From: a virus
Lineage: Duplodnaviria; Heunggongvirae; Uroviricota; Caudoviricetes
Reading direction: 5' to 3' (one strand)
Virus record (IMG/VR): IMGVR_UViG_2645728091_000007
Location: 1 to 13,894 of that record
DNA: 13,894 nucleotides
Of this stretch, positions 1 to 13,470 are shown in pieces. The number at the start of each line of letters is the position of its first letter. Position 1 is the stretch's first letter. Under the pieces are notes generated by a model. It saw only the letters and a program-made list of their open reading frames with translations, was not told where the DNA came from and did no database searches. Position numbers and translations under genes: made by a program.

Positions 1-1
1 C

Positions 2-1063
2 GGGGAGGAAGGAAACTACCGGATGGAAAGAGTCCCCCTAAAGCAGACTGACAGACATCACAAATCCCCGGGTGGGGATTTGTGTATAAGAGACAGACCA
101 GTAGCAGGGGAAAACATCCGCGATAATGCGCCAAATTTCCATAAATGGCTTGAACATGCTGCAAGAAAAGACCCGCGTAAGATGATGCGTATATGTGCCG
201 CGTTATACATGATTATGGCGAACCGCTACGACTGGCAGATGTTCATTGAGGCCACCGGAGACGGGGGAAGCGGTAAGAGTACATTTACCCATATTGCCAC
301 CCTGCTTGCTGGCAAACAGAACACCGTAAGCGCGGAGATGACATCACTCGATGATGCAGGAGGGCGCGCGCAGGTTGTCGGGAGTCGTCTTATCGTCCTT
401 GCCGATCAGCCGAAATATACGGGGGAAGGCACGGGCATCAAGAAAATCACGGGAGGCGATCCCGTTGAAATTAACCCGAAATATGAGAAGCGATTCACGA
501 CGATAATAAGGGCGGTGGTACTGGCAACCAATAACGACCCGATGATCTTTACCGAACGGGCCGGAGGTGTGTCACGCCGTCGGGTGATTTTCCGGTTCGA
601 CAACATTGTAAGGGAGGACGAAAAAGACAAGGAATTACCGGAAAAGATAGCGGCAGAAATCCCCGTAATTATCCGCCGCTTGCTGGCTAATTTTGCTGAC
701 CCTGAAAAGGCACGGGCTTTATTACTGGAACAGCGTGACGGTGATGAAGCTCTGGCAATAAAGCAGCAAACGGATCCGGTTGTTGAGCTTTGCGCGGCGC
801 TGGAGTTTCTGGAGGAAGCTCGTGGGCTAATGATGGGCGGTGGTGGTGACACCGTGAAGTACACGACCAGAAACAGCCTTTACCGTGTCTATATGGCCTT
901 CATGGCATACACAGGAAAGGGGAAATGTTTGAGCGTGAATGAGTTCGGAAAGGCTATGAGGTCAGCGGCGAAAGTTTACGGATATGAATATATTACGCGA
1001 AAAGTTAAGGGAGTCACGCAGACCAACGCAACGACTACTGATGATTGCGATGCGTTTTTATAA
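2..1063 (+). CDS. Primase-helicase, P4 alpha/D5 family, C-terminal portion (5'-partial; frame is open from the window edge)
   Basis: Walker A motif GDGGSGKST about 80 codons into the ORF, preceded by a D5_N-like segment (NFHKWLEHAARKDPRKMMRICAALYMI) and followed by a C-terminal region typical of P4-family primases. First in-frame ATG is at 23, but the frame is open from position 2. N-terminal primase domain is absent from the window. Confidence 0.7.
   Translation, partial: GEEGNYRMERVPLKQTDRHHKSPGGDLCIRDRPVAGENIRDNAPNFHKWLEHAARKDPRKMMRICAALYMIMANRYDWQMFIEATGDGGSGKSTFTHIATLLAGKQNTVSAEMTSLDDAGGRAQVVGSRLIVLADQPKYTGEGTGIKKITGGDPVEINPKYEKRFTTIIRAVVLATNNDPMIFTERAGGVSRRRVIFRFDNIVREDEKDKELPEKIAAEIPVIIRRLLANFADPEKARALLLEQRDGDEALAIKQQTDPVVELCAALEFLEEARGLMMGGGGDTVKYTTRNSLYRVYMAFMAYTGKGKCLSVNEFGKAMRSAAKVYGYEYITRKVKGVTQTNATTTDDCDAFL
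78..96 (-). mobile_element. Tn5/IS50-like 19-bp end sequence (element body would lie to the left)
   Basis: Reverse complement of 78-96 is CTGTCTCTTATACACAAAT. The first 16 nt equal the Tn5 mosaic end exactly; 17/19 match both the outside end (CTGACTCTTATACACAAGT) and the mosaic end. A 9-bp-stem palindrome CAAATCCCC-gggt-GGGGATTTG containing a SmaI site lies at 61-82. Confidence 0.3.
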
Positions 1064-1077
1064 AAAATGGCAATGGT

Positions 1078-1305
1078 TATCTACCTTGTCTACCTGACTG
1101 AAAGAAAATACTTTTATTTCAATGTATTAATGCAGGTAGATAACTATTTTTCACTGTCTACCTGTTATCTACCTTATCTACCCATTTTTGTAGACAGGTA
1201 AGGAGACGGGTAGAGATGAGGTAGACAGCTATTTGGGGCTGTCTACCTCCCTGAAACCCGCGCCATTACTGGCCTGATAACTAATCAGGTAGACAAGGTA
1301 GACAA
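1078..1305. repeat. Iteron cluster, about 11 copies of GGTAGACA / TGTCTACC in both orientations (putative ori or crr)
   Basis: Copies at about 1078, 1087, 1135, 1155, 1167, 1175, 1190, 1209, 1220, 1240, 1288 and 1297, including a direct tandem GGTAGACAAGGTAGACAAGG at 1288-1307. AT-rich context immediately downstream of the primase gene. Confidence 0.6.
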
Positions 1306-1352: not shown

Positions 1353-1610
1353 ATGCACACATCAGGAAAACTGAACAAACATATAAAGCCACATTACCGC
1401 GCCCTTGATATGGCTGAACACTGGCTAAGGGTGGCGATTAAGGCAATAGACCGCAACGCCGGGGAAGGATACGCGAAAGCACATCCCGAACTGATAAGCG
1501 CATTCATGACAACGGCGGCTGCAAACTTTGCCACGCTGACCGAACGGGAGATTGCTGAAGCGGAGGAAGTGACAACAATCAATATTAAGTCCGGAGAGCT
1601 GGCAGCATGA
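1353..1610 (+). CDS. Hypothetical small protein (85 aa)
   Basis: ORF with a GAGGGGG Shine-Dalgarno about 12 nt upstream; its stop overlaps the SSB start (ATGA at 1607-1610), suggesting translational coupling. No family recognised. Confidence 0.5.
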   Translation: MHTSGKLNKHIKPHYRALDMAEHWLRVAIKAIDRNAGEGYAKAHPELISAFMTTAAANFATLTEREIAEAEEVTTINIKSGELAA

Positions 1611-2056
1611 CGGCGCAAATATCAGTTTACGGGCGGTTGGTGGACGACCCGCAGACAAAACAGACCAGCAAGGGCACCCCCATGACGCTGGCGCGTATGG
1701 CGGTATCACTGCCCTGCAGTCAGTCGGATGACGGTCTGGCGACGTTGTGGTTATCTGTCCTGGCGTTTGGCAGACAAGCCGACGCGCTGGCAAAGCATCA
1801 CAAAGGCGAACTCCTGAGCGTGGCGGGTAACATGCAGATGAGCCAGTGGACTGGACAGAACGGCGAAACGCGGCAGGGCTGGCAGGTTATCGCAGACAGC
1901 GTAATCAGTGCGCGATCGGTGCGACCGGGCGGCAAAAAAGGCCAACAGGGGCAGGCTACTGACGCACTGAACAGAGCAAAACAACAGGCAGATCAGCAAG
2001 GAAGCCAGCCACCAGAGGGAGATAATGAGCAATGGGGAGATGATATCCCGTTTTAA
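1607..2056 (+). CDS. ssb: Single-stranded DNA-binding protein
   Basis: N-terminal OB-fold-like region (ISVYGRLVDDPQ...), Q/G-rich linker, and C-terminal WGDDIPF matching the acidic tail of E. coli SSB (DFDDDIPF). Confidence 0.8.
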   Translation: MTAQISVYGRLVDDPQTKQTSKGTPMTLARMAVSLPCSQSDDGLATLWLSVLAFGRQADALAKHHKGELLSVAGNMQMSQWTGQNGETRQGWQVIADSVISARSVRPGGKKGQQGQATDALNRAKQQADQQGSQPPEGDNEQWGDDIPF

Positions 2057-2074
2057 ATATTGCCAATAAAAAAA

Positions 2075-2098
2075 GCCGGAAAAAATAAATTTTCCGGC
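2075..2098 (-). terminator. Stem-loop with a 9-bp perfect stem (GCCGGAAAA / TTTTCCGGC); looks like an intrinsic terminator on the minus strand
   Basis: On the minus strand the hairpin is followed by a run of 7 T (complement of the A-run at 2068-2074). On the plus strand no U-run follows. Sits in the SSB-capsid intergenic region. Confidence 0.3.
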
Positions 2099-2272
2099 AT
2101 GCTACATAAATCCCGACCAAAGGGAGTGAAGATATTAACACTAATTGTCCGCACTGAAGTTGTCACCCCAAAACTTTATACAACATTGCACTCGGTTGCA
2201 TGTGTTCGCATGACAAATATCGGTGATAGCATATATCCACAATTATTTTTAATGAATGCAAAGAGGATGCGT

Positions 2273-3313
2273 ATGGTTGATTTATATTCGCCTACTCAGC
2301 TTGTACAGGTAGTTAATGCTGTAGATGTACAAAAACAACTAAATGCGTTGTTTACCAGTTTGTTTTTTACTCGCTCGGTAATGTTTGAATCGCGCGATAT
2401 TATTCTTGATACAATCGACGATCCAAATATCCCAATTGCAGCGTTTTGTTCTCCTATGGTGGGTAGTAAAGTTTCACGTGACGAAGGGTACGAATCAAAA
2501 ACAATTCGTCCAGGCTATATGAAGCCGAAAAGCAGCATTGATCCAAATAAGTTAGCTGTGCGCCCTGCTGGTGTATCACCTGAGCAATACAATTCTTTTG
2601 GGGCGCGTAATATTAAAGTTAAACAGGCGATTGTAAATCAGGCTAAAGCTATTCGTGCACGTATTGAATGGCTTGCCGTTCAGGCAATCACAACGGGGAA
2701 AAATATCATTGAGGGCGATGGTATTGAACGTTATGAGCTGGACTGGAATATTAAACCACAAAATATCATCACTCAGTCTGGCGGTGCTGAGTGGTCAGGT
2801 AAGGATAAAGAAACTTTTGATCCAAATGATGATATTGATAGCTACGCAGAATTTAGTGAGGGCGTCACTAATATCATCATTATGGGCGGTAATGTATGGA
2901 AGAAATACCGTTCATTCAGAGCGATAAAAGAGGCTCTGGATACCCGTCGTGGTTCTAATTCCGAACTGGAAACGGCCCTTAAAGACCTTGGTGATTCGGT
3001 GAGTTTTAAAGGGTATATGGGCGATGTTGCGATTGTTGTATATAGCGGGCGTTATACCGACGAGGACGGAACTGAAAAACATTTCCTTGATCCTGATTTG
3101 ATGGTGCTTGGCAATACGGCTCTTCAGGGGATTGTCGCCTATGGAGGTATTCAGGATCCGGAGCTAATCCGAATGGGGCTGACTAAAGCCGAACTTGCAC
3201 CGAAAAACTATATTGTGCCTGGTGATCCGGCTATTGAATATGTGCAGACACATTCAGCACCACAGCCAATACCGGCCCGCATCAATCGTTTTGTTACCGT
3301 TCGCATTGGCTAA
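2273..3313 (+). CDS. Major capsid protein, lambda gpE family (divergent homolog, 346 aa)
   Basis: Similarity to lambda gpE along the full length (LFF near the N-terminus; QSGG.EWS..DK.T.DP.DDI; LDTRRGSNSELETA; GDVAIVVYSG). Start at 2273 chosen from the AAGAGG Shine-Dalgarno at 2261-2266 and alignment to gpE MSMY; the ORF track's upstream extension to 2060 has no homology. Confidence 0.8.
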   Translation: MVDLYSPTQLVQVVNAVDVQKQLNALFTSLFFTRSVMFESRDIILDTIDDPNIPIAAFCSPMVGSKVSRDEGYESKTIRPGYMKPKSSIDPNKLAVRPAGVSPEQYNSFGARNIKVKQAIVNQAKAIRARIEWLAVQAITTGKNIIEGDGIERYELDWNIKPQNIITQSGGAEWSGKDKETFDPNDDIDSYAEFSEGVTNIIIMGGNVWKKYRSFRAIKEALDTRRGSNSELETALKDLGDSVSFKGYMGDVAIVVYSGRYTDEDGTEKHFLDPDLMVLGNTALQGIVAYGGIQDPELIRMGLTKAELAPKNYIVPGDPAIEYVQTHSAPQPIPARINRFVTVRIG

Positions 3314-3322
3314 GGGGGAGCA

Positions 3323-3664
3323 ATGGCTACTCATTACACTGAACTCATGGCTGGCACTGAAGCACTGGTGACTACGCTGGGGATATTTTCAGCTAATAAA
3401 GGGGTAATTCCTGCATTTACGCCACTGATGCAGGAAGATGCAACAGGTGCACTGGTGGTATGGGATGGTTCGAGCGTAGGTAAAGCGGTTTATGTTTCCG
3501 CTGTACAAATCGACACCGCGAAAAAAACACAGGCTCAGGTCTATAAGACAGGTGTCTTAAATGTTGATGCTCTGAACTGGCCTGAGTCTGTTAAAGAACT
3601 GTCAGTAAAGGTTGCAGCGTTTGTTGGCTCAGGTATTTCTGTTCAGCCGCTGGCTCGTGTGTAA
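3323..3664 (+). CDS. Head decoration protein, lambda gpD family (113 aa)
   Basis: Alignable to lambda gpD (THY; TPLM; VVWDGS vs VAWDGT; YKTG vs YKSG; WPE; AF.G..IS). AAGGGGGAG Shine-Dalgarno directly after the capsid gene stop. Confidence 0.75.
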   Translation: MATHYTELMAGTEALVTTLGIFSANKGVIPAFTPLMQEDATGALVVWDGSSVGKAVYVSAVQIDTAKKTQAQVYKTGVLNVDALNWPESVKELSVKVAAFVGSGISVQPLARV

Positions 3665-3675
3665 AGGGGGATACA

Positions 3676-4059
3676 ATGCAGAATGATTACAATGACCTTA
3701 AGCCAATTGCCGAAATGATGTACCCGAATCCAGCTGTAGAGGAATTAAAAGCTATCGCTGACAAAATGTGTTTAAGCGAGCGCCTTGTTGATATGAATCA
3801 GGTGATGGAAATTACAACCCTGAGTCGTCGTACACTGCTAAACCTTGAGGCTAGTGGAGAGTTCCCGGAGCGTGTGCAGGTTACGGAAGGGCGTAAGGCC
3901 TGGTATTTAAGTGAAGTGATCGACTGGATAAATAATATTCCTCGCGCTTCTGAATATTGCCGCGTACCTGTCCCAAAAAAGCCAGATGCGGCGCTATGCC
4001 TCAAGATTGAGCGTGTACGCCGCAATGCACGGGATGGTCGCTATAAGCTGATTGGTTGA
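3676..4059 (+). CDS. AlpA-family (phage transcriptional regulator / excisionase-like) HTH protein with a ~40-aa N-terminal extension
   Basis: Segment MEITTLSRRTLLNLEASGEFPERVQVTEGRKAWYLSEVIDWINN resembles the AlpA/MerR-like HTH domain. Strong Shine-Dalgarno AAGGGGGAT before the ATG at 3676. Confidence 0.6.
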   Translation: MQNDYNDLKPIAEMMYPNPAVEELKAIADKMCLSERLVDMNQVMEITTLSRRTLLNLEASGEFPERVQVTEGRKAWYLSEVIDWINNIPRASEYCRVPVPKKPDAALCLKIERVRRNARDGRYKLIG

Positions 4060-4079
4060 TGAAATTAGGGCCCGCTCTG

Positions 4080-4149
4080 GCTGGCGGGTCCTTTCCGGTG
4101 ATCCAGAACGTTACGGGGCGGAAGGCGCGCGGGTTTTCGCTATTTATGA
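4080..4149 (+). other. Lambda-type cos site (cosQ/cosN-like) with a variant cohesive-end sequence
   Basis: GGCGGGTCCTTTCCGGTGATCC...GTTACG, then a 12-mer GGGCGGAAGGCG at 4116-4127 (lambda cosN is GGGCGGCGACCT), then CGCGGGTTTTCGCTATTTATGA matching the lambda left end as I recall it. Lies directly upstream of the Nu1-like gene. Confidence 0.6.
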
Positions 4150-4260
4150 GCATTTTAAGGGGACTGGTGGTGGTTTTGTTGTTCGCTGTATCTGTATGAA
4201 TAATAAGAGAAAAATACAATCAATACACCAACCTGAAACAGTAATTAAGTTGTGGTATCA

Positions 4261-4803
4261 ATGAAATTACACCTGATGAACAAAAAAAACATGGCAAAAA
4301 GTTGCCGTGTAAGCGCCACTGCGTTCGATAAGTGGGGAGTGATTCCCGTCGAGCGTAAGGGCCGTGAGGCGTTCTATGATGTTGCCAGTGTAATAGATAA
4401 TCGGGTTAACAATGCAATCAGCCAGATTACAAACGAAACGGGCGATATTGATGACGATGAACTTTTACGCGTCAGGATCAGATTACTGACAGCACAGGCA
4501 GAGGCGCAGGAGCTTAAAAACGAGCGCGAACGCGGCGACGTTATTGATACAGAGTTTTGTATGTATGTTCTTTCCAAACTGGCGAGTCAGATTTCATCTA
4601 TCATGGACAGCCTGCCGCTTACCATGCAAAGGCGCTTCCCACAGATGACTCCGGCTATGCTGGATGGACTTAAAAAGGAAGTGGCTAAAGCCTGTAATGC
4701 CAGTGCCGGCGTTGCTGACAACCTCCCACAGATACTGGCTGATTATCTGATGGAAAGTACAGGAAACGTACCGGATAAGTTGCAGCTGAATAAGGATAAG
4801 TAA
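4261..4803 (+). CDS. Terminase small subunit, lambda Nu1-like
   Basis: Similarity to lambda Nu1 in the middle and C-terminal parts (LTAQAEAQELKNERERGDVIDTEFCMYVLSKLASQISSIMDSLPLTMQRRFPQ vs lambda LTRAQADAQELKNARDSAEVVETAFCTFVLSRIAGEIASILDGLPLSVQRRFPE). N-terminal HTH region is divergent. Start is ambiguous: ATG at 4261, 4276 (best alignment to Nu1 MEVNKK) or GTG at 4252. Confidence 0.8.
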   Translation: MKLHLMNKKNMAKSCRVSATAFDKWGVIPVERKGREAFYDVASVIDNRVNNAISQITNETGDIDDDELLRVRIRLLTAQAEAQELKNERERGDVIDTEFCMYVLSKLASQISSIMDSLPLTMQRRFPQMTPAMLDGLKKEVAKACNASAGVADNLPQILADYLMESTGNVPDKLQLNKDK

Positions 4804-4814
4804 CGTAGTACGCT

Positions 4815-5090
4815 ATGACTGAATCCGAACTACTGAAAGTAATCTGCCATGCTGGTGGAGTCAGCCACCAGCATGACGAACAGACCACGCAGCCGGGCAG
4901 TGTCACCGCTGAAAATTACGCTCGTGTGGTTGCTGAGGTTATGTGGCGTGACGGTATAGAACTGAACGGACAGGATTGCTTAGTCATCCGCACCAAAGTG
5001 CTGGCTATACTGGCAGCTAGGCGGAGGCAGGGACAACGCCAGAACGTTGCATCGTACCAGTGGAAGAAGCCTGACAGACTGCGGCGATAA
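4815..5090 (+). CDS. Hypothetical protein (91 aa) in the position where a large terminase gene would be expected
   Basis: ORF only; no similarity to the lambda gpA N-terminus; weak RBS. Confidence 0.35.
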   Translation: MTESELLKVICHAGGVSHQHDEQTTQPGSVTAENYARVVAEVMWRDGIELNGQDCLVIRTKVLAILAARRRQGQRQNVASYQWKKPDRLRR

Positions 5091-5492
5091 CTCTTTGATT
5101 TTCTCGACGGCCCCAAAATGGGCCTTACCATAGCCAGCTAATAAATGAGCAAGCCTCAAAAGTGAGGTTTGTGGCCGTTTGGCCTATTCATATGCTAACT
5201 CGTTGATATTCCTGACGACGCAAATTTACGCCTTGTGGCTGGTAGTCGAATTGCAAATTTGCAACTCAACTATGAAACTACAGGTAGTTTGGGTAGTAAA
5301 AGCAACACACTGATTTTGGGGCTTCTTCGCGATACCTAATATTATGGTATCGGTGGAAGAGATATCGTTTCTCATAGGTTAGCACCGAGGGCGGAGTTCC
5401 GCCCTCATCGAAAAATTGCTTACGAGTCGTCAAAATAAATTAATCGACTGAGTATAATGATTAACTAATTGCTCGTGTTACTTCATTATACG

Positions 5493-6254
5493 TTATTTCC
5501 CATCTTTAAGGTTTAACCAAGTGTTAATTAAAAAAAGAGCCATTGAACCTGATAAATTTACTGCAAGTTCGGCATGCCTTGGGGATGGCTTAATTGATGA
5601 GCTGTTCGTTCCATGTGCATCACCGAGTTTATTACGAAGAGTACCTAACCCATTTACAACTGCAGAACAACCGCCGAGAATTTGTTTGAAGATATTTTCA
5701 GTATGTTGGTCGGCAGATAGGTTAAGTTCTTTTGAAAGAGTTTTATAAAGCTCTGACATTTCAATATTTTTATTATTATACTGAATGCCCATATCATCAA
5801 GAATGTGTTTGCAAACTGTTTCAAGAAGTGTTCTTGCGGAGGTTATCGCACCATCCGGATCTGTATGGCGCCGTTCAAGTGCTTTTATCCAAACGGCGTG
5901 GACTCCATCCTCGTTAAACTTTCTTAATACATCAGATATGTCTTCATCCGCTGGAGCTTTATTTTTCCCTTCTAGATAGTCCAGCATCGGCTGAAATGCC
6001 TTATAAATCAAATCTCTCCGGGGGGCATACTTTTCAGTCTTTTTTATAAATCCCCAAAATTCTTTTAGTGAGCGATTAGTTCTCACAAACTCTGGTAATA
6101 GCTGATGTAAAGGAGGATTTTGTAAGAAATATGTTCTTAGAAGCAAATAATCATTATTAGCTTCATCCTGGGCTCCTGTAGCTCTTGCAATTAGTATGTT
6201 TTGAAGCGCTACTGCGCGCTCTAGGTCATTTTGAAGGGTATCTATAATATTCAT
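5493..6254 (-). CDS. Abortive-infection-like protein with a C-terminal HEPN-type Rx6H motif (Abi_C-like)
   Basis: 253-aa ORF on the minus strand. C-terminal GTLRNKLGDAHG fits the HEPN Rx4-6H motif and my recollection of Abi_C-family proteins. AT-rich gene flanked by noncoding DNA, consistent with acquired cargo. Confidence 0.5.
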   Translation of the reverse strand: MNIIDTLQNDLERAVALQNILIARATGAQDEANNDYLLLRTYFLQNPPLHQLLPEFVRTNRSLKEFWGFIKKTEKYAPRRDLIYKAFQPMLDYLEGKNKAPADEDISDVLRKFNEDGVHAVWIKALERRHTDPDGAITSARTLLETVCKHILDDMGIQYNNKNIEMSELYKTLSKELNLSADQHTENIFKQILGGCSAVVNGLGTLRNKLGDAHGTNSSSIKPSPRHAELAVNLSGSMALFLINTWLNLKDGK

Positions 6255-6427: not shown

Positions 6428-7204
6428 GTGAATCCGCAGATGACCCTGCGTCGCCTGCCGGATGAAGATCCGCAGAATCTGGCGGACCCGGCTTACCGCC
6501 GCCGTCGCATCATCCTGCAGAACATGCGTGACGAGGAGCTGGCCATTGCCCAGGTCGAAGAGATGCAGGCCGTTTCTGCCGTGCTTAAGGGCAAATACAC
6601 CATGACCGGTGAAGCCTTCGATCCGGTTGAGGTGGATATGGGCCGCAGTGCGGCGAATAACATCACGCAGTCCGGCGGCACGGAGTGGAGTAAGCGTGAT
6701 AAGTCCACGTATGACCCGACCGACGATATCGAAGCCTACGCGCTGAACGCCAGCGGTGTGGTGAATATCATCGTGTTTGATCCGAAAGGCTGGGCGCTGT
6801 TCCGTTCCTTCAAAGCCGTCAGGGAGAAGCTGGATACCCGTCGCGGCTCTCATTCCGAACTGGAGACAGCGGTAAAAGACCTGGGCAAAGCGGTGTCTTA
6901 TAAGGGAATGTATGGCGATGTGGCCATCGTCGTGTATTCCGGACAGTACGTGGAAAATGGTGTCAAAAAGAACTTCCTGCCGGACAACACGATGGTGCTG
7001 GGCAACACTCAGGCACGCGGTCTGCGCACCTATGGCTGCATTCAGGATGCGGACGCACAGCGCGAAGGCATTAACGCCTCTGCCCGTTACCCGAAAAACT
7101 GGGTGACCACCGGCGATCCGGCGCGTGAGTTCACCATGATTCAGTCAGCACCGCTGATGCTGCTGGCTGACCCTGATGCGTTCGTGTCCGTACAACTGGC
7201 GTAA
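6428..7204 (+). pseudogene. E: Major capsid protein gpE, 5'-truncated (C-terminal ~260 codons, lambda-like)
   Basis: Translation matches lambda gpE from about residue 82 (NPQMTLRRLPDEDPQNLADPAYRRRRI...) to the C-terminus (...FVSVQLA). In-frame upstream codons KHE are preserved but a TAA occurs at 6413-6415 and homology ends near 6410. The N-terminal ~80 codons are missing. Confidence 0.8.
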
Positions 7205-7206
7205 TC

Positions 7207-7224
7207 ATGGCCCTTCGGGGCCAT
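7207..7224 (+). other. Stem-loop ATGGCCC-TTCG-GGGCCAT after the E stop, followed by a T-rich tract
   Basis: Perfect 7-bp stem with a TTCG tetraloop; matches the E-FI intergenic hairpin of lambda as I recall it. Confidence 0.5.
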
Positions 7225-7245
7225 TTTCTCTCTGTGGAGGAGTCC

Positions 7246-7641
7246 ATGACGAAAGATGAACTGATTGCCCGTCTTCAGGTGCTGGGTGAGCAACTGAACC
7301 GTGATGTCAGCCTGACGGGGACGAAAGAAGAACTGGCGCTCCGTGTGGCAGAGCTGGAAGAGGAGCTTGATGACACGGATGACGCTGCCGGTCAGGACAC
7401 GTCTGTCAGCCCGGAAAATGCGCTGACCGGGCATGAAAATGAGGTGGTGTCAGCGCAGCCGGGTACCGTGACTGATACGGCTGATCTGGTCACGGTTGTG
7501 GCACTGGTGACGCTGCATACTGATGCACTTCACGCCACGCGGGATGAGGCTGTGGCATTTGTGCTGCCGGGAACGGCGTTCCGTGTTTCTGCCAGTGTGG
7601 CAGCCGAAATGACAGAACATGGCCTGGCCAGAATGCAATAA
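7246..7641 (+). CDS. FI: DNA packaging / head assembly protein FI
   Basis: MTKDELIARLQ...GLARMQ matches lambda gpFI. GGAGGA Shine-Dalgarno at 7236-7241. The ORF-track start at 7207 is an upstream in-frame extension. Confidence 0.85.
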   Translation: MTKDELIARLQVLGEQLNRDVSLTGTKEELALRVAELEEELDDTDDAAGQDTSVSPENALTGHENEVVSAQPGTVTDTADLVTVVALVTLHTDALHATRDEAVAFVLPGTAFRVSASVAAEMTEHGLARMQ

Positions 7642-7652
7642 CGGGAGGCGCT

Positions 7653-8006
7653 GTGGCTGATTTCGATAACCTGTTCGATGCTGCCATTGCCCGCGCCGAT
7701 GAAACGATACGCGGGTACATGGGAACGTCAGCCACCATGACATCCGGTGAGCAGTCCGGCGCAGTAATACGTGGTGTTTTTGATGACCCTGAAAATATCA
7801 GCTATGCCGGACAGGGCGTGCGTGTTGAAGGCTCCAGCCCGTCCCTGTTTGTCCGGACTGATGATGTGCGGCAGCTGCGGCGCGGCGACACGCTGACCAT
7901 CGGTGAGGAAAACTTCTGGATAGACCGGATTTCACCGGATGATGGCGGAAGCTGTCATCTCTGGCTTGGGCGTGGCGTACCGCCTGCCGTTAACCGTCGC
8001 CGCTGA
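7653..8006 (+). CDS. FII: Head-tail joining protein FII
   Basis: GTG start with GGGAGG Shine-Dalgarno; MADFDNLFDAAIARADETIRGYMG... matches lambda gpFII (117 aa). Confidence 0.9.
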   Translation: MADFDNLFDAAIARADETIRGYMGTSATMTSGEQSGAVIRGVFDDPENISYAGQGVRVEGSSPSLFVRTDDVRQLRRGDTLTIGEENFWIDRISPDDGGSCHLWLGRGVPPAVNRRR

Positions 8007-8017
8007 AAGGGGGATGT

Positions 8018-8596
8018 ATGGCCATAAAAGGTCTTGAGCAGGCCGTTGAAAACCTCAGCCGTATCAGCAAAACGGCAGTGCCCGGTGCCGCCGCAATGGC
8101 CATTAACCGCGTGGCCACAACCGCAATAAAGCAGTCGGCGTCACAGGTTGCCCGTGAGACAAAGGTACGCCGGAAACTGGTAAAGGAAAGGGCCAGGCTG
8201 AAAAGGGCCACGGTCAAAAATCCGCAGGCCAGAATCAAGGTTAACCGGGGGGATTTGCCCGTAATCAAGCTGGGGAATGCGCGGGTTGTCCTGTCCCGCC
8301 GCAGGCGTCGTAAAAAGGGGCAGCGTTCATCCCTGAAAGGTGGCGGCAGCGTGCTTGTGGTGGGAAACCGTCGTATTCCCGGCGCGTTTATTCAGCAACT
8401 GAAAAATGGCCGGTGGCATGTCATGCAGCGTGTGGCCGGGAAAAACCGTTACCCCATTGATGTGGTGAAAATCCCGATGGCGGTGCCGCTGACCACGGCG
8501 TTTAAACAGAATATTGAACAGATACGGCGTGAACGTTTGCCGAAAGAACTGGAATACGCCCTGAAACAACAACTGAGGATTGCGATAAAGCGATGA
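8018..8596 (+). CDS. Z: Tail completion protein Z
   Basis: 192 aa, MAIKGLEQAVENLSRISKTAVPGAAAMAINRVA... matches lambda gpZ. AAGGGGGAT Shine-Dalgarno. Confidence 0.9.
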   Translation: MAIKGLEQAVENLSRISKTAVPGAAAMAINRVATTAIKQSASQVARETKVRRKLVKERARLKRATVKNPQARIKVNRGDLPVIKLGNARVVLSRRRRRKKGQRSSLKGGGSVLVVGNRRIPGAFIQQLKNGRWHVMQRVAGKNRYPIDVVKIPMAVPLTTAFKQNIEQIRRERLPKELEYALKQQLRIAIKR

Positions 8597-8988
8597 AACA
8601 TACTGAACTCCGTGCAGCCGTACTGGATGCACTGGAGAAGCATGACACCGGGGCGACGCTTTTTGATGGTCGCCCCGCTGTTTTTGATGAGGCGGATTTT
8701 CCGGCAGTTGCCGTTTATCTCACCGGCGCTGAATACACGGGCGAAGAGCTGGACAGCGATACCTGGCAGGCGGAGCTGCATATCGAAGTTTTCCTGCCTG
8801 CTCAGGTGCCGGATTCAGAGCTGGATTCGTGGATGGAGTCCCGGATTTATCCGGTGATGAGCGATATCCCGGCACTGTCAGATTTGATCACCAGTATGGT
8901 GGCCAGCGGCTATGACTACCGGCGCGACGATGATGCGGGCCTGTGGAGTTCAGCCGATCTGACTTATGTCATTACCTATGAAATGTGA
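8593..8988 (+). CDS. U: Tail terminator protein U
   Basis: 131 aa, [22 protein letters not shown]... matches lambda gpU. ATGA overlap with the Z stop. Confidence 0.9.
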
Positions 8989-8995
8989 GGACGCT

Positions 8996-9736
8996 ATGCC
9001 TGTACCAAATCCTGTAATGCCGGTGAAAGGTGCCGGGACCACCCTGTGGGTTTATAAGGGGAGCGGTGACCCTTATGCGAACCCGCTTTCAGACGTTGAC
9101 TGGTCGCGTCTGGCAAAAGTTAAAGACCTGACGCCCGGCGAACTGACCGCTGAGTCCTATGACGACAGCTATCTCGATGATAAAGATGCAGACTGGACTG
9201 CGACCGGGCAGGGGCAGAAATCTGCCGGAGATACCAGCTTCACGCTGGCGTGGATGCCCGGAGAGCAGGGGCAGCAGGCGCTGCTGGCGTGGTTTAATGA
9301 AGGTGATACCCGTGCCTATAAAATCCGCTTCCCGAACGGCACGGTCGATGTGTTCCGTGGCTGGGTCAGCAGTATCGGTAAGGCGGTGACGGCGAAGGAA
9401 GTGATCACCCGCACGGTGAAAGTCACCAATGTGGGACGTCCGTCGATGGCAGAAGATCGCAGCACGGTAACAGCGGCCACCGGCATGACGGTAACGCCAG
9501 CCAGTGCTTCCGTAGTGAAAGGGCAGAGCACTACGCTGACCGTGGCATTCCAGCCGGAGGGCGTAACCGACAAGAGCTTTCGTGCGGTGTCTGCGGATAA
9601 AACAAAAGCCACCGTGTCGGTCAGTGGTATGACCATCACCGTGAACGGCGTTGCTGCAGGCAAGGTCAACATTCCGGTTGTATCCGGTAATGGTGAGTTT
9701 GCTGCGGTTGCAGAAATTACCGTCACCGCCAGTTAA
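8996..9736 (+). CDS. V: Major tail protein V
   Basis: [36 protein letters not shown]... matches lambda gpV (246 aa), including the C-terminal Ig-like region. GAGGA Shine-Dalgarno; the ORF-track start at 8966 is an upstream extension overlapping U. Confidence 0.9.
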
Positions 9737-9751
9737 TCCGGAGAGTCAGCG

Positions 9752-10174
9752 ATGTTCCTGAAAACCGAATCATTTGAACATAACGGTGTGACCGTCACGC
9801 TTTCTGAACTGTCAGCCCTGCAGCGTATTGAGCATCTTGCCTGGTTGAAAGAGCAGGAAAAAAAGGCTGAATCCAGTGGCAACCTGCAGGTGTCTGTAGA
9901 GGATCTTATCAGAGGCGGGGCGTTTCTGGTGGCGATGTCTCTGTGGCATAACCATCCGCAGAAGACAAAGCTGCCGTCCATGAATGAAGCCATTACGCAG
10001 ATTGAGCAGGAAGTGCTTACCACCTGGCCCACGGAGGCAATTGCTCAGGCTGAAAACGTGGTGTTACGTCTGTCCGGAATGTCTGAGTTTGTGGTGAATA
10101 ATGCCCCTGAACAGGCAGAGGACGCCGGGCCTGCAGAGCCTGTTTCTGCGGGAAAGTGTTCGACGGTGAGCTGA
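9752..10174 (+). CDS. G: Tail assembly chaperone G
   Basis: 140 aa, MFLKTESFEHNGVTVTLSELSALQRIEHLA... ending ...PVSAGKCSTVS as in lambda gpG. Middle region differs from lambda at several residues. Confidence 0.9.
   Translation: MFLKTESFEHNGVTVTLSELSALQRIEHLAWLKEQEKKAESSGNLQVSVEDLIRGGAFLVAMSLWHNHPQKTKLPSMNEAITQIEQEVLTTWPTEAIAQAENVVLRLSGMSEFVVNNAPEQAEDAGPAEPVSAGKCSTVS
10150..10156 (+). promoter_or_regulatory. Programmed -1 ribosomal frameshift slippery heptamer G GGA AAG (G into T frame)
   Basis: Heptamer GGGAAAG lies in the G zero frame as G-GGA-AAG near the 3' end of G. The T frame (10156-10590) is -1 relative to G and has no start codon of its own with an RBS. Confidence 0.85.
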
Positions 10175-10590
10175 GTTTTGCCCTGAAACTGGCGCGCGAG
10201 ATGGGGCGACCCGACTGGCGCGCCATGCTTGCCGGGATGTCATCCACGGAGTATGCCGACTGGCACCGCTTTTACAGTACCCATTATTTTCATGATGTTC
10301 TGCTGGATATGCACTTTTCCGGGCTGACGTACACCGTGCTCAGCCTGTTTTTCAGCGATCCGGATATGCATCCGCTGGATTTCAGTCTGCTGAACCGGCG
10401 TGAGGCTGACGAAGAGCCTGAAGATGATGTGCTGATGCAGAAAGCGGCAGGGCTTGCCGGAGGTGTCCGCTTTGGCCCGGACGGGAATGAAGTTATCCCC
10501 GCTTCCCCGGATGTGGCGGACATGACGGAGGATGACGTAATGCTGATGACAGTATCAGAAGGGATCGCAGGAGGAGTCCGGTATGGCTGA
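10156..10590 (+). CDS. T: Tail assembly protein T segment, expressed as a G-T fusion by -1 frameshifting (fusion would span 9752-10590)
   Basis: Translation FDGELSFALKLAREMGRPDWRAMLAGMSSTEYADWHRFYSTHYFHD... matches lambda gpT; frame is -1 relative to G. Confidence 0.85.
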   Translation: MFDGELSFALKLAREMGRPDWRAMLAGMSSTEYADWHRFYSTHYFHDVLLDMHFSGLTYTVLSLFFSDPDMHPLDFSLLNRREADEEPEDDVLMQKAAGLAGGVRFGPDGNEVIPASPDVADMTEDDVMLMTVSEGIAGGVRYG

Positions 10591-13144
10591 ACCGGTAGGC
10601 GATCTGGTCGTTGATTTGAGTCTGGATGCGGCCAGATTTGACGAGCAGATGGCCAGAGTCAGGCGTCATTTTTCCGGTACGGAAAGTGATGCGAAAAAAA
10701 CAGCGGCAGTCGTTGAACAGTCAATGAACCGGCAGGCGCTGGCTGCACAGAAAGCGGGGATTTCCGTCGGGCAGTATAAAGCCGCCATGCGTATGCTGCC
10801 TGCACAGTTCACCGACGTGGCCACGCAGCTTGCAGGCGGGCAAAGTCCGTGGCTGATCCTGCTGCAACAGGGGGGTCAGGTTAAGGACTCCTTCGGCGGG
10901 ATGATCCCCATGTTCAGGGGGCTTGCCGGTGCGATCACCCTGCCGATGGTGGGGGCCACCTCGCTGGCGGTGGCGACCGGTGCGCTGGCGTATGCCTGGT
11001 ATCAGGGCAACTCAACCCTGTCCGATTTCAACAAAACGCTGGTCCTTTCCGGCAATCAGGCGGGACTGACGGCAGATCGTATGCTGGTCCTGTCCAGAGC
11101 CGGGCAGGCGGCAGGGCTGACGTTTAACCAGACCAGCGAGTCACTCAGCGCACTGGTTAAGGCGGGGGTAAGCGGTGAGGCTCAGATTGCGTCCATCAGC
11201 CAGAGTGTGGCGCGTTTCTCCTCTGCATCCGGCGTGGAGGTGGACAAGGTCGCTGAAGCCTTCGGGAAGCTGACCACAGACCCGACGTCGGGGCTGACGG
11301 CGATGGCACGCCAGTTCCATAACGTGACGGCGGAGCAGATTGCGTATGTTGCTCAGTTGCAGCGTTCCGGCGATGAAGCCGGGGCATTGCAGGCGGCGAA
11401 CGAGGCCGCAACGAAAGGGTTTGATGACCAGACCCGCCGCCTGAAAGAGAACATGGGCACGCTGGAGACCTGGGCAGACAGGACTGCGCGGGCATTCAAA
11501 TCCATGTGGGATGCGGTGCTGGATATTGGTCGTCCTGATACCGCGCAGGAGATGCTGATTAAGGCAGAGGCTGCGTTTAAGAAAGCAGACGACATCTGGA
11601 ATCTGCGCAAGGATGATTATTTTGTTAACGATGAAGCGCGGGCGCGTTACTGGGATGATCGTGAAAAGGCCCGTCTTGCGCTTGAAGCCGCCCGAAAGAA
11701 GGCTGAGCAGCAGACTCAACAGGACAAAAATGCGCAGCAGCAGAGCGATACCGAAGCGTCACGGCTGAAATATACCGAAGAGGCGCAGAAGGCTTACGAA
11801 CGGCTGCAGACGCCGCTGGAGAAATATACCGCCCGTCAGGAAGAACTGAACAAGGCACTGAAAGACGGGAAAATCCTGCAGGCGGATTACAACACGCTGA
11901 TGGCGGCGGCGAAAAAGGATTATGAAGCGACGCTGAAAAAGCCGAAACAGTCCGGCGTGAAGGTGTCTGCGGGCGATCGTCAGGAAGACAGTGCTCATGC
12001 TGCCCTGCTGACGCTTCAGGCAGAACTCCGGACGCTGGAGAAGCATGCCGGAGCAAATGAGAAAATCAGCCAGCAGCGCCGGGATTTGTGGAAGGCGGAG
12101 AGTCAGTTCGCGGTACTGGAGGAGGCGGCGCAACGTCGCCAGCTGTCTGCACAGGAGAAATCCCTGCTGGCGCATAAAGATGAGACGCTGGAGTACAAAC
12201 GCCAGCTGGCTGCACTTGGCGACAAGGTTACGTATCAGGAGCGCCTGAACGCGCTGGCGCAGCAGGCGGATAAATTCGCACAGCAGCAACGGGCAAAACG
12301 GGCCGCCATTGATGCGAAAAGCCGGGGGCTGACTGACCGGCAGGCAGAACGGGAAGCCACGGAACAGCGCCTGAAGGAACAGTATGGCGATAATCCGCTG
12401 GCGCTGAATAACGTCATGTCAGAGCAGAAAAAGACCTGGGCGGCTGAAGACCAGCTTCGCGGGAACTGGATGGCAGGCCTGAAGTCCGGCTGGAGTGAGT
12501 GGGAAGAGAGCGCCACGGACAGTATGTCGCAGGTAAAAAGTGCTGCCACGCAGACCTTTGATGGTATTGCACAGAATATGGCGGCGATGCTGACCGGCAG
12601 TGAGCAGAACTGGCGCAGCTTCACCCGTTCCGTGCTGTCCATGATGACAGAAATTCTGCTTAAGCAGGCAATGGTGGGGATTGTCGGGAGTATCGGCAGC
12701 GCCATTGGCGGGGCTGTTGGTGGCGGCGCATCCGCGTCAGGCGGTACAGCCATTCAGGCCGCTGCGGCGAAATTCCATTTTGCAACCGGAGGATTTACGG
12801 GAACCGGCGGCAAATATGAGCCAGCGGGGATTGTTCACCGTGGTGAGTTTGTCTTCACGAAGGAGGCAACCAGCCGGATTGGCGTGGGGAATCTTTACCG
12901 GCTGATGCGCGGCTATGCCACCGGCGGTTATGTCGGTACACCGGGCAGCATGGCAGACAGCCGGTCGCAGGCGTCCGGGACGTTTGAGCAGAATAACCAT
13001 GTGGTGATTAACAACGACGGCACGAACGGGCAGATAGGTCCGGCTGCTCTGAAGGCGGTGTATGACATGGCCCGCAAGGGTGCCCGTGATGAAATTCAGA
13101 CACAGATGCGTGATGGTGGCCTGTTCTCCGGAGGTGGACGATGA
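10583..13144 (+). CDS. H: Tail tape measure protein H
   Basis: 853 aa, MAEPVGDLVVDLSLDAARFDEQMARVRRHF... matches lambda gpH in length and sequence. AGGAGGA Shine-Dalgarno. Confidence 0.95.
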   Translation: MAEPVGDLVVDLSLDAARFDEQMARVRRHFSGTESDAKKTAAVVEQSMNRQALAAQKAGISVGQYKAAMRMLPAQFTDVATQLAGGQSPWLILLQQGGQVKDSFGGMIPMFRGLAGAITLPMVGATSLAVATGALAYAWYQGNSTLSDFNKTLVLSGNQAGLTADRMLVLSRAGQAAGLTFNQTSESLSALVKAGVSGEAQIASISQSVARFSSASGVEVDKVAEAFGKLTTDPTSGLTAMARQFHNVTAEQIAYVAQLQRSGDEAGALQAANEAATKGFDDQTRRLKENMGTLETWADRTARAFKSMWDAVLDIGRPDTAQEMLIKAEAAFKKADDIWNLRKDDYFVNDEARARYWDDREKARLALEAARKKAEQQTQQDKNAQQQSDTEASRLKYTEEAQKAYERLQTPLEKYTARQEELNKALKDGKILQADYNTLMAAAKKDYEATLKKPKQSGVKVSAGDRQEDSAHAALLTLQAELRTLEKHAGANEKISQQRRDLWKAESQFAVLEEAAQRRQLSAQEKSLLAHKDETLEYKRQLAALGDKVTYQERLNALAQQADKFAQQQRAKRAAIDAKSRGLTDRQAEREATEQRLKEQYGDNPLALNNVMSEQKKTWAAEDQLRGNWMAGLKSGWSEWEESATDSMSQVKSAATQTFDGIAQNMAAMLTGSEQNWRSFTRSVLSMMTEILLKQAMVGIVGSIGSAIGGAVGGGASASGGTAIQAAAAKFHFATGGFTGTGGKYEPAGIVHRGEFVFTKEATSRIGVGNLYRLMRGYATGGYVGTPGSMADSRSQASGTFEQNNHVVINNDGTNGQIGPAALKAVYDMARKGARDEIQTQMRDGGLFSGGGR

Positions 13145-13470
13145 AGACCTTCCGCTGGAAAGTGAAACCCGGTATGGATGTGGCTTCGGTCCCTTCTGTA
13201 AGAAAGGTGCGCTTTGGTGATGGCTATTCTCAGCGAGCGCCTGCCGGGCTGAATGCCAACCTGAAAACGTACAGCGTGACGCTTTCTGTCCCCCGTGAGG
13301 AGGCCACGGTACTGGAGTCGTTTCTGGAAGAGCACGGGGGCTGGAAAGCCTTTCTGTGGACGCCGCCTTATGAGTGGCGGCAGATAAAGGTGACCTGCGC
13401 AAAATGGTCGTCGCGGGTCAGTATGTTGCGTGTTGAGTTCAGCGCAGAGTTTGAACAGGTGGTGAACTGA
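13141..13470 (+). CDS. M: Tail tip assembly protein M
   Basis: 109 aa, MKTFRWKVKPGMDVASVPSVRKVRFGDGYSQRAPAGLNANLK... matches lambda gpM. ATGA overlap with the H stop. Confidence 0.9.
   Translation: MKTFRWKVKPGMDVASVPSVRKVRFGDGYSQRAPAGLNANLKTYSVTLSVPREEATVLESFLEEHGGWKAFLWTPPYEWRQIKVTCAKWSSRVSMLRVEFSAEFEQVVN

Follow-up and report, generated by a model that had tools for sequence, protein, structure and literature searches.

A Tn5-like end in front of a truncated primase is very probably the terminus of a natural ISEc13 insertion

Within the first 96 bases of the 13,894-nt stretch of viral DNA analyzed here (hereafter, the window) lies a near-copy of the terminal sequence of transposon Tn5, directly in front of primase-homologous DNA. 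A preliminary description of this locus offered three origins: a real IS4-family insertion truncating the primase, an engineered mini-Tn5 insertion, or a library or assembly artefact. The locus also serves as a warning: when a contig ends near a 19-mer resembling Tn5, the source may be a native IS50-type element or a real adapter remnant, and we saw both in public assemblies. The bases just upstream of the 19-mer distinguish a native insertion sequence (IS) from an adapter remnant.

In the window these bases belong to a known element, represented by the ISEc13 copies in E2348/69 (L001 4001-4096) and FDAARGOS_144 (L002):

1-96, minus strand: last 96 bp of ISEc13 on its transposase-proximal ("left") side, identical at 96/96 positions to L001 and L002

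The gene adjoining the identical ends carries the PGAP label "IS4-like element ISEc13 family transposase", and it is from this family label, together with the identity to the E2348/69 copies, that we take the name ISEc13. Comparison of two insertion sites set the boundaries of the reference copy at L001 2547-4096, and the element measures 1550 bp end to end at L001, L002, L186, L190 and L196, within the 1350-1550 bp range of the IS50 subgroup; this length comes from the reference copies, the window itself carrying 96 bases only. At the L001 and L002 loci the transposase gene starts 165 nt inside the tip on the opposite strand, and in the window copy it points leftwards, out of the window, with about 1454 bp of the element beyond the edge. 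The preliminary description had placed a transposon or adapter-derived segment on that side, which is where the rest of ISEc13 lies. The window copy is like the known copies in its orientation to the transposase gene and its CT... ends, with zero differences in 96 bases, and only its location in a primase gene is particular.

ISEc13 is annotated in E. coli O127:H6 E2348/69 and in many other E. coli, Shigella and Salmonella replicons. Of 5426 complete E. coli genomes, 1376 (about 25%) contain its end sequence, at up to 31 places per genome, and it is also present on 325 plasmids. Most likely, the window begins inside the IS because this repeat, present in many copies, interrupted a short-read assembly. 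An exact 31-mer of the ISEc13 end had no match in GTDB representative genomes, where a shorter 19-mer found relatives and adapter remnants and not ISEc13 itself. Window 1-1100 had no match in a phage collection, and a whole ISEc13 copy searched on both strands had none in Rfam at E <= 1.

The outermost 19 bases of the element read ATTTGTGTATAAGAGACAG at window 78-96, the reverse complement of CTGTCTCTTATACACAAAT. We compared them with the Tn5 mosaic end (ME) and outside end (OE), using the reference sequences in PMC2566895:

78-96, minus strand: 19-bp terminal end CTGTCTCTTATACACAAAT, a putative outside-end-type site for transposase binding and cleavage, 17/19 to OE and 17/19 to ME
82-90, minus strand: TTATACACA, read from the sequence as identical to positions 8-16 of Tn5 OE/ME, the region with a single DnaA site

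Positions 81-96 are a 16-nt exact match to the ME, and the suspicion that such a resemblance would hardly arise by chance was well founded: the match occurs once in the window and not at all in 200 dinucleotide-preserving shuffles. The end fits the IS50-subgroup signature CW------Y---CA-A--W- (PMC2266710, Table 1) at C1, T2, T9, C13, A14, A16 and T19, with the 5'-CT present. Tn5 ME and OE each contain one DnaA site (PMC3347997); the near end of ISEc13 keeps this region and differs from the OE at positions 4 and 18, and DnaA may act on ISEc13 as well. By analogy with Tn5, the tip would be bound by the ISEc13 transposase.

Since the transposase gene lies outside the window, transposase tests were run with L001 2558-3931 from the reference copy, which ends in the same bases as window 1-96. 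Against Tn5 transposase structures, phmmer gave E = 7e-83 over residues 6-453 with the DDE and Y-R-E-K motif residues aligned (EDTT, CDREAD and Y..RW.IEE.HKAWK). Pfam placed Tnp_DNA_bind and DDE_Tnp_1 (E 1.3e-7) above cut-off and Dimer_Tnp_Tn5 slightly under it. The reference copy encodes its DDE transposase in a single ORF and shows the DDE and Y(2)R(3)E(6)K motifs by which the IS4 family is recognized. The far end of ISEc13 is CTGTCTCTTGATCAGATCT, identical at 19/19 positions to the IS50 inside end (verified beside aph(3')-IIa in L199); this sequence also contains the stop codon of the transposase gene. An OE was also sought in L199 and not found, the IS50L copy there being truncated; a literal literature search with the inside-end sequence found no paper.

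ISEc13 and IS50/Tn5 are thus alike in their three-domain transposase layout and DDE/YREK residues, and similar in the length of the target duplication (8-9 bp in ISEc13, 9 bp in Tn5). They differ in other respects. The ISEc13 transposase is a homologue of the Tn5 protein without near-identity, and the element is a distinct one; its leader is about 165 nt long with a hairpin abutting the tip, whereas the IS50 leader is shorter (about 90 nt); and its target, CCCC-N8/9-GGGG, is unlike the weak target preference of Tn5, with its consensus A-GNTYWRANC-T. Window 1-96 contains no GATC sites. Although the element works in the manner of IS50, we rejected IS50/Tn5 itself as the source because the exact outside end CTGACTCTTATACACAAGT is absent (17/19) and the transposase is not near-identical.

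The same comparisons bear on the two artificial origins. The 19-mer could be left over from a Nextera/mosaic-end adapter or have arisen by chimeric assembly. In favour of this, the window starts only 96 bases from the motif, as is typical of contig ends, and such remnants do exist: about 20 of 124 GTDB-representative 19-mer hits were real ones, directly after GTCTCGTGGGCTCGG or TCGTCGGCAGCGTC. Here, however, the tip matches the mosaic end at 17 of 19 positions rather than 19, an exact ME preceded by either of these sequences is absent, of the two adapter arms one has no match anywhere in the window while the other matches at no more than chance level, at a distance of kilobases, and the 77 bases upstream of the tip are 100% native ISEc13. 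Moreover, an independent public contig (NCBI NKPB01000069.1) shows the same junction, with 0 mismatches over 4063 nt, and includes a further 360 nt of IS sequence up to the contig end. We give an artefact practically no credence. An engineered mini-Tn5 or EZ-Tn5 insertion from mutagenesis fares equally badly. The orientation and the sharp junction do resemble a transposon mutant, and 16 nt are common to the tip and the mosaic end, but engineered derivatives carry an exact OE, IE or ME followed by vector or marker sequence, whereas this tip differs at two positions from each of these ends and adjoins the natural IS so widespread in E. coli; the probability is close to nil.

What the comparisons return for 1-96 is ISEc13, and not an uninterrupted primase lacking any IS hit. 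The first of the three proposed origins therefore holds, with 1-96 identical to annotated ISEc13 copies and a transposase that is a full-length homologue of the Tn5 enzyme: with high confidence, a natural ISEc13 (IS4 family, IS50 subgroup) is inserted in a primase gene, and window 1-96 is its transposase-proximal end.

On the other side of the junction, the window is homologous to intact primase genes from base 97 exactly, right after the Tn5-like end as the preliminary description had it, at 99.9% over 97-1100 and in hundreds of E. coli genomes. The intact gene encodes a 583-aa primase-helicase (D5_N/DUF5906). The IS stands between codons 262 and 263, inside D5_N (residues 152-281 according to Pfam), so that the first 262 residues are cut off from the NTPase half. 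It leaves behind an open reading frame that crosses the junction:

23-1063, plus strand: chimeric ORF of 24 IS codons, the junction codon AGA (95-97), primase residues 263-583 and a stop

ORF residues 26-346 match the intact protein at 263-583 without a single difference (321/321), and Pfam finds in the ORF the D5_N tail, DUF5906 and the Pox_D5 C-terminal region. A consensus scanner found no promoter-like site upstream of it on the plus strand. Judged by its sequence, the ORF is an accidental in-frame fusion of the IS end to the primase, and therefore the ATG at 23 is not the native start, as had been suspected; in the intact gene the native start codon is 785 nt upstream of the insertion point. 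The 346-aa "primase" predicted from this ATG is a truncated pseudogene fragment fused to an IS, which matters mainly for annotation. The gene sits in a satellite-like prophage island, which has probably lost autonomous replication. An IS insertion that splits a prophage-type primase is an ordinary event, and the element is already known. Within the collections searched, this site is occupied in the window and in the one NCBI contig and in 0 of 5426 complete E. coli genomes; the junction 29-mer had no match in metagenome contigs.

If ISEc13 arrived by cut-and-paste DDE transposition, as its kinship with Tn5/IS50 suggests, transposase bound to the 19-bp tip would have carried out strand transfer, cutting the target with a stagger of 8-9 bp. 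The bases that follow the tip are these:

97-105, no strand assigned: predicted right-hand copy of the target-site duplication, the first primase bases (ACCAGTAGC if 9 bp; 97-104 if 8 bp)
106-110, no strand assigned: AGGGG, right arm of the preferred target motif; native primase sequence, the same in the uninterrupted gene

The intact gene reads ...ACACGCC ACCAGTAGC AGGGG... (L003 2994-3014), and the tip abuts the primase precisely, with no bases lost or gained relative to it. We considered whether the G-run after the tip could be part of the IS and rejected this, as AGGGG is also present in the uninterrupted primase gene. The duplication at the primase insertion is predicted from other ISEc13 copies: seven of them have target duplications, five of 8 bp and two of 9 bp, in agreement with the description of the IS50 subgroup (PMC2266710).

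The element also has a marked taste in targets. A GGG starting at +9 to +12 is found in 31 of 36 distinct ISEc13 right flanks, against a background of 3.3% (binomial P about 3e-41), and a C-run lies to the left of the duplication in all seven full copies (7/7). Statistically, then, ISEc13 strongly prefers CCCC-N8/9-(A)GGGG targets. Given this C-run/(A)GGGG preference, the primase site was probably chosen for its ACCAGTAGC-AGGGG, although it fits the motif on the right half only. Among the relatives of ISEc13, we also observed insertions into terminator-like palindromes; marine relatives appear to use ordinary terminators.

A simple insertion predicts a left junction of the form ...GAGTACACGCC-ACCAGTAG(C)-CTGTCTCTTGATCAG..., a pattern that had no match in viral contigs, and the left junction of the primase insertion was not found in any collection searched. 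A protein search with the N-terminal 264 residues of the primase brought up two candidates for its product, both rejected: P0001 is truncated elsewhere (...EFSHKR) and P0039 is a primase-capsid fusion. The IS end could thus be real and the junction secondary, produced by an IS-mediated rearrangement (deletion of adjoining DNA, inversion, or recombination of one ISEc13 copy with another), in which case the N-terminal half of the primase would not be on the other side. The missing left junction and the half-matched target motif speak for this, and rearrangements do occur, since among the nine ISEc13 copies with both flanks, two (L185 and L192) lack a matching duplication. The other seven are duplicated, however, and the exact abutment of tip and primase and an (A)GGGG at the distance typical of primary insertions argue for a simple insertion. 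We consider a rearranged junction improbable.

We turn to the hairpin-forming DNA just inside the tip:

59-84, no strand assigned: subterminal palindrome CACAAATCCCC-GGGT-GGGGATTTGTG, with 11-bp arms and a 4-nt loop, overlapping the inner 7 bp of the 19-bp end; supported by folding
1-47, minus strand: section of another hairpin, irregular in form, in the ISEc13 5' leader, from the fold of the L001 3920-4096 minus strand and L124 241-300

The palindrome mentioned in the preliminary description is real and slightly longer than stated there, but it lies in IS DNA and not in primase-derived sequence; it is "inside the reading frame" only formally, the chimeric ORF happening to be open through the IS end. 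As RNA it folds at -19 kcal/mol on the plus strand (z -2.75), and within a 61-nt stretch of the minus strand the value is -24.5 kcal/mol (z -4.3), some flanking pairs included. The second hairpin lies about 50 nt further in, with its closing stem and a T6 tract (GCGATTTTTTGAAC) just outside the window; it may have a function in the leader.

Relatives of ISEc13 point to what the first hairpin may once have been. In 28 distinct sequences the same AAATCC...GGATTT frame recurs (AAATCC-stem-loop-stem-GGATTTTTT), with covarying, G+C-rich stems of 7-9 bp followed by A+T6-8 in 28/28. By a stem-anchored pair count, designed after the hairpins had been seen, 98.3% of 235 stem cells are paired, against 70.9 +/- 3.0% with shuffled 3' arms, and each of stem positions 5-7 shows four to six pair types (the four standard ones plus G-U/U-G variants). 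A MAFFT-based pair count was dropped because of register shifts, the named structure and a -1 slide scoring alike. The relatives' hairpins have a median core energy of -12.7 kcal/mol and a median tail of 7 T in 9 nt. The ISEc13 hairpin has a G+C core of only 4 bp, which A-T and CAC/GTG pairs extend to 11 bp, and its tail, ATTTGTGAT, holds no clean T tract. On this comparison of sequences, the ISEc13 palindrome is a shortened counterpart, at the same position, of a putative inward-facing intrinsic terminator of canonical form in its relatives.

The closest parallel is IS200, whose left end carries a bidirectional terminator against impinging transcription (PMC4513863). As in ISEc13 relatives, the IS200 hairpin lies roughly a dozen nucleotides in from the tip on the transposase side; the relatives' layout is likewise an A tract, a G+C hairpin and a T tract, 19 nt from the tip. 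By analogy, the relatives' terminator would most likely serve to stop transcription from a neighbour before it reaches the transposase gene. IS200 belongs, however, to the IS200/IS605 family, whose transposase family and mechanism are unrelated to those of ISEc13. Moreover, in ISEc13 most of the G+C stem is gone, as is the T tract, and termination in its clade is putative. Because the hairpin is shortened and without a clean T tract, terminator activity of ISEc13's own hairpin is doubtful, with roughly even chances.

The palindrome at 59-84 may then be no terminator at all, and instead a feature acting at the level of DNA (bound by transposase or a host protein, or forming a cruciform that modulates use of the end), an mRNA-stability element, or a functionless relic of an ancestral terminator. 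The overlap of its right arm with the transposase-binding end, the core stem of four G-C pairs and the want of a T tract are all compatible with this. The far end of ISEc13, too, has a perfect 13-bp palindrome overlapping its tip, which hints at a DNA-level role. A consensus terminator scanner returned nothing at the palindrome or elsewhere at the ISEc13 end, on either strand; it also returned nothing at two relatives' ends and, in our own reading, misses their hairpins because the maximal stem absorbs the A/T clamp. Against these points stand the 28 relatives, in which the stem sequence varies freely while pairing is kept and T6-8 always follows, the signature of an RNA terminator rather than of a sequence-specific protein site. 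A non-terminator role thus has a serious claim, at somewhat less than an even chance.

Taking targets and hairpins together, we offer a tentative proposal, which we regard as possible and rather unlikely: ISEc13 and the gammaproteobacterial clade sharing its 19-bp tip may be palindrome- and terminator-seeking Tn5 relatives with an undescribed target rule (CCCC-N8/9-(A)GGGG for ISEc13, the loop of GCC...GGC-TTTTT terminators for marine relatives) and an insulating terminator of their own 19 nt inside the tip. If so, the built-in terminator would protect the transposase gene and also stand in for the host terminator destroyed by the insertion; if, in addition, the transposase reads the arms directly, it would be a naturally site-biased Tn5-type enzyme. 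The by-products, namely the strong ISEc13 target motif and the conserved terminator in relatives, are modest leads for transposon biology and hold no surprises. That palindrome-targeting is possible within the IS4 family is known from ISRm22 (PMC1525189, PMC2266710). Like the ISEc13 clade, IS1397/ISKpn1, IS621, ISPpu9/10 and ISRm22 insert at the centre of hairpin-forming palindromes. These elements target REP/BIME repeats, whereas the ISEc13 motif is a short pair of a C-run and a G-run that also occurs inside genes.

The match to a Tn5 end at the window edge is confirmed and falls at window 78-96. The 19 bases there are ATTTGTGTATAAGAGACAG (reverse complement CTGTCTCTTATACACAAAT). In the latter orientation they differ at two positions from the Tn5 mosaic end CTGTCTCTTATACACATCT (17 of 19 alike, with a 16-nt exact run) and at two from the Tn5 outside end CTGACTCTTATACACAAGT (also 17 of 19), both ends as given in PMC2566895. 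A search for Tn5 ends with up to 3 mismatches returned this single site in the window and none in 200 shuffles. Searched on its own, window 1-110 has matches on 325 plasmids and at 1775 places in complete E. coli genomes, spread over 1376 of the 5426 covered, with as many as 31 in one genome. The neighbouring gene in E. coli E2348/69 and FDAARGOS_144 is annotated “IS4-like element ISEc13 family transposase” and runs on the opposite strand, with the match 70 nt upstream of it; both copies of ISEc13 agree with window 1-96 base for base, and similarity to their unrelated flanks drops off past position 96. Comparison of the two insertion sites places ISEc13 at 2547-4096 of the E2348/69 locus (L001), a length of 1550 bp. 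Its far end is CTGTCTCTTGATCAGATCT, identical to the IS50 inside end; as a check of that identity, the same sequence stands directly upstream of aph(3')-IIa in a Tn5-carrying plasmid, followed by IS50 sequence.

The 457-aa ISEc13 transposase matches Tn5 transposase structures over its whole length (E = 7e-83), with the DDE residues and the YREK motif aligned, and Pfam reports three Tn5-type domains: DNA-binding and DDE above the cut-off, and dimerisation slightly under it. De Palmenaer et al. (PMC2266710) define an IS50 subgroup to which the element conforms in size, 5'-CT ends, end signature, and 8-9 bp duplications. By sequence, the identity to known copies, the boundaries, the transposase, and the subgroup fit together identify window 1-96 as the transposase-proximal end of ISEc13, with the remaining element to the left of the window, as the preliminary description had proposed when it gave a real IS4-family insertion as one of three options.

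Two further features of ISEc13 were seen in passing. Its far end holds a perfect 13-bp palindrome, GTCTCTTGATCAG-ATCTC-CTGATCAAGAGAC (L001 2549-2579), which overlaps the inside-end-type tip and the transposase stop codon and folds at about -23 to -25 kcal/mol. Three copies on metagenome contigs (L129, L135, L145) are internally deleted (reference positions 431-1019, 165-293, 1056-1098) with both tips kept, and are possible non-autonomous derivatives.

The alternatives of an adapter or assembly artefact and of an engineered mini-Tn5 did not hold up. Neither Nextera arm adjoins the motif, the tip is not an exact mosaic, outside, or inside end, and the 77 bases upstream of it are native insertion sequence (IS). 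An exact-protein look-up recovered the same chimeric open reading frame (ORF) on NCBI contig NKPB01000069.1 (GCA_002460965.1), which is identical to the window over 4063 nt and extends 360 nt into ISEc13 before ending. Because two differently broken contigs carry the same junction, they argue for a real junction and for contigs that end by assembly breaks in a repeat. The adapter concern was nonetheless reasonable, as the 19-mer ATTTGTGTATAAGAGACAG has 124 matches among GTDB representative genomes, of which about 20 are true remnants of adapters; these stand at contig ends and are told by an adapter arm directly upstream. These remnants (in genomes or MAGs, on contigs L006, L010, L031, L037, L044, L053, L063, L069, L099, L116, L121, and others) read GTCTCGTGGGCTCGG or TCGTCGGCAGCGTC, then the mosaic end miscalled as ATTTGTG..., and represent untrimmed adapter contamination in deposited public assemblies.

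When window 1-1100 was compared by megablast with the same 5426 genomes, hundreds of matches at 99.9% came back. Every one of them begins at base 97, and the genes they fall in carry the annotation “DNA primase family protein”; the primase homology thus begins where it had been reported to. The interrupted gene and its setting are as follows.

Features of the intact primase gene, the island, and the adjoining prophage
L003 (locus with the intact gene) 2216-3967: primase, 583 aa; D5_N 152-281, DUF5906 315-416, Pox_D5 C-terminal match
Intact relative's island, in order: integrase, HTH, Icd-like, DUF4222, primase, SSB, lambda-E-type capsid, decoration protein, AlpA-like regulator, Nu1-type small terminase, Abi gene on the opposite strand
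Window 1353-6254: island part, SSB to Nu1-type small terminase, Abi on the minus strand
Window 6428-13470: lambdoid prophage, directly adjoining the island
Window 6428-7204: prophage major capsid gene, 5' part missing
Downstream of the capsid remnant: FI, FII, Z, U, V, G, T, H (tape-measure), and M homologues

At the insertion site, the intact gene reads ...ACACGCC ACCAGTAGC AGGGG..., and the ISEc13 tip adjoins L003 base 3001, the third base of primase codon 262, so that the gene is split within D5_N. Residues 26-346 of the window ORF are identical to intact primase residues 263-583 (321 of 321), preceded by 24 IS-derived codons (MERVPLKQTDRHHKSPGGDLCIRD) and a codon 25 that spans the junction. 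This excludes the ATG at 23 as the native start, as had been suspected; the intact gene starts 785 nt ahead of the insertion point, and no promoter-like site was found on the plus strand ahead of the window ORF. The primase sits in a satellite-like island, which has probably lost its replication function and which stands in place of the phage head and packaging region. Elsewhere, a 272-aa protein (P0039) fuses the first ~83 residues of the primase to a Phage_cap_E capsid domain, implying a deletion variant of the island without primase, SSB, and intervening genes, and a 247-aa protein (P0001, 62 member sequences) marks a recurrent truncation at about residue 243 (...GEFSHKR), away from the ISEc13 site.

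The window junction was not found in the complete E. coli genomes searched, nor in the metagenome, viral, and representative-genome collections. For the left junction, a protein search with the N-terminal half of the primase returned only other truncations, and the predicted DNA pattern had no match in viral contigs; because that junction was not found, the target duplication (97-105 or 97-104) is a prediction. An IS-mediated rearrangement in place of a simple insertion is improbable; the duplication is absent from 2 of 9 other ISEc13 copies with both flanks available. What stands at this contig edge is a catalogued insertion sequence that interrupts a gene of a prophage island (real, ordinary, and already known), and the overall diagnosis of the preliminary description was correct. 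Two modest leads emerge: the ISEc13 target motif and a putative terminator built into the clade.

For the target, the ISEc13 end was collected 77 times, from the window, the NCBI contig, two genomes, and contigs of metagenomes and viruses (L001, L002, and L125-L197 included), which leaves 36 distinct right flanks. G is the prevailing base from +10 to +13: 26 of the 36 flanks have it at +10, and 31 at each of the next three positions. A GGG with its first base at +9 to +12 is present in 31 of the 36, versus 3.3% of random positions of the same loci (P about 3e-41, a few flanks being near-duplicates). Seven copies have recognisable duplications (8 bp in five, 9 bp in two), with a C-run, CCC(C), directly to the left. 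Together, the G-rich right flanks and this C-run give CCCC(T)-N8/9-(A)GGGG as the preferred target. In the primase, the right arm is present as AGGGG (106-110), which belongs to the gene itself, and the left arm (CACGCC) is weak; it is because of the motif's G-rich right arm that some matches to window 1-110 run on to 109-110.

The 19-mer tip is common to many elements (among the GTDB matches L004-L123), in Vibrio, Pseudoalteromonas, Neiella, Shewanella, Alteromonas, Serratia, Klebsiella, Scandinavium, and others. Among the distinct flanks of these relatives, 46 of 75 carry at least five T at +12 to +21, against an 11% background, and the first and last bases of their putative 9-bp duplication tend to be complementary (e.g., GCATGTTGC-GGCTTTTTTT and CCCAAAAGG-AGAGGGG). 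The whole clade appears to insert into palindromes, either terminator-like or of repeats, at their loops. Tn5 (weakly) and, in the IS4 family, ISRm22 are known to use palindromic targets (PMC1525189). Palindrome-loop targeting by the IS50 subgroup is not described in the text of PMC2266710, nor in a paper naming ISEc13.

The palindrome noted beside the tip is present and slightly larger than first described, spanning 59-84 with 11-bp arms (CACAAATCCCC-GGGT-GGGGATTTGTG). Inward from the tip, most relatives read CTGTCTCTTATACACAAAT-CC..stem-loop-stem..GG-ATTTTTT(T)GAAC; the hairpin stands 19 nt inside the tip and has T6-8 after it. Across the 28 distinct sequences, core stems measure 7-9 bp with a median energy of -12.7 kcal/mol, loops measure 3-6 nt, and the nine bases past the hairpin hold a median of 7 T. 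When stem pairs are counted from the conserved AAAT/ATTT clamp towards the loop, pairing holds in 98.3% of 235 cells versus 70.9 +/- 3.0% when 3' arms are shuffled among sequences, and each of stem positions 5-7 has between four and six kinds of pair (the four standard plus G-U/U-G variants). Because pairing is kept while the stem sequence varies, the hairpin bears the signature of an RNA structure maintained by selection, in the form of an inward-facing intrinsic terminator. Such a terminator would most likely halt read-through from flanking genes ahead of the transposase gene, as the left-end terminator of IS200 does against incoming transcription (PMC4513863). Against the terminator reading, Rfam gave no match and an ordinary MAFFT alignment of the relatives gave an ambiguous pair count with register shifts; a simple scanner flagged no terminator at the ends of ISEc13 or its relatives. 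In ISEc13 itself, the clamp and CCCC/GGGG remain, but the T tract and the variable stem are gone; ~50 nt more towards the inside comes a second, irregular hairpin with T6 after it, part of which falls in window 1-47, and both hairpins are candidate terminators. In a comparison of NCBI contig L124 (241-300) with L015, a GTDB match of the tip, the ISEc13 leader, set beside its closest relatives, looks like the ancestral terminator with ~57-66 nt inserted, its T-tract half (CCCCGGCAGCGATTTTTTGAAC) shifted inward and a new short hairpin at the tip.
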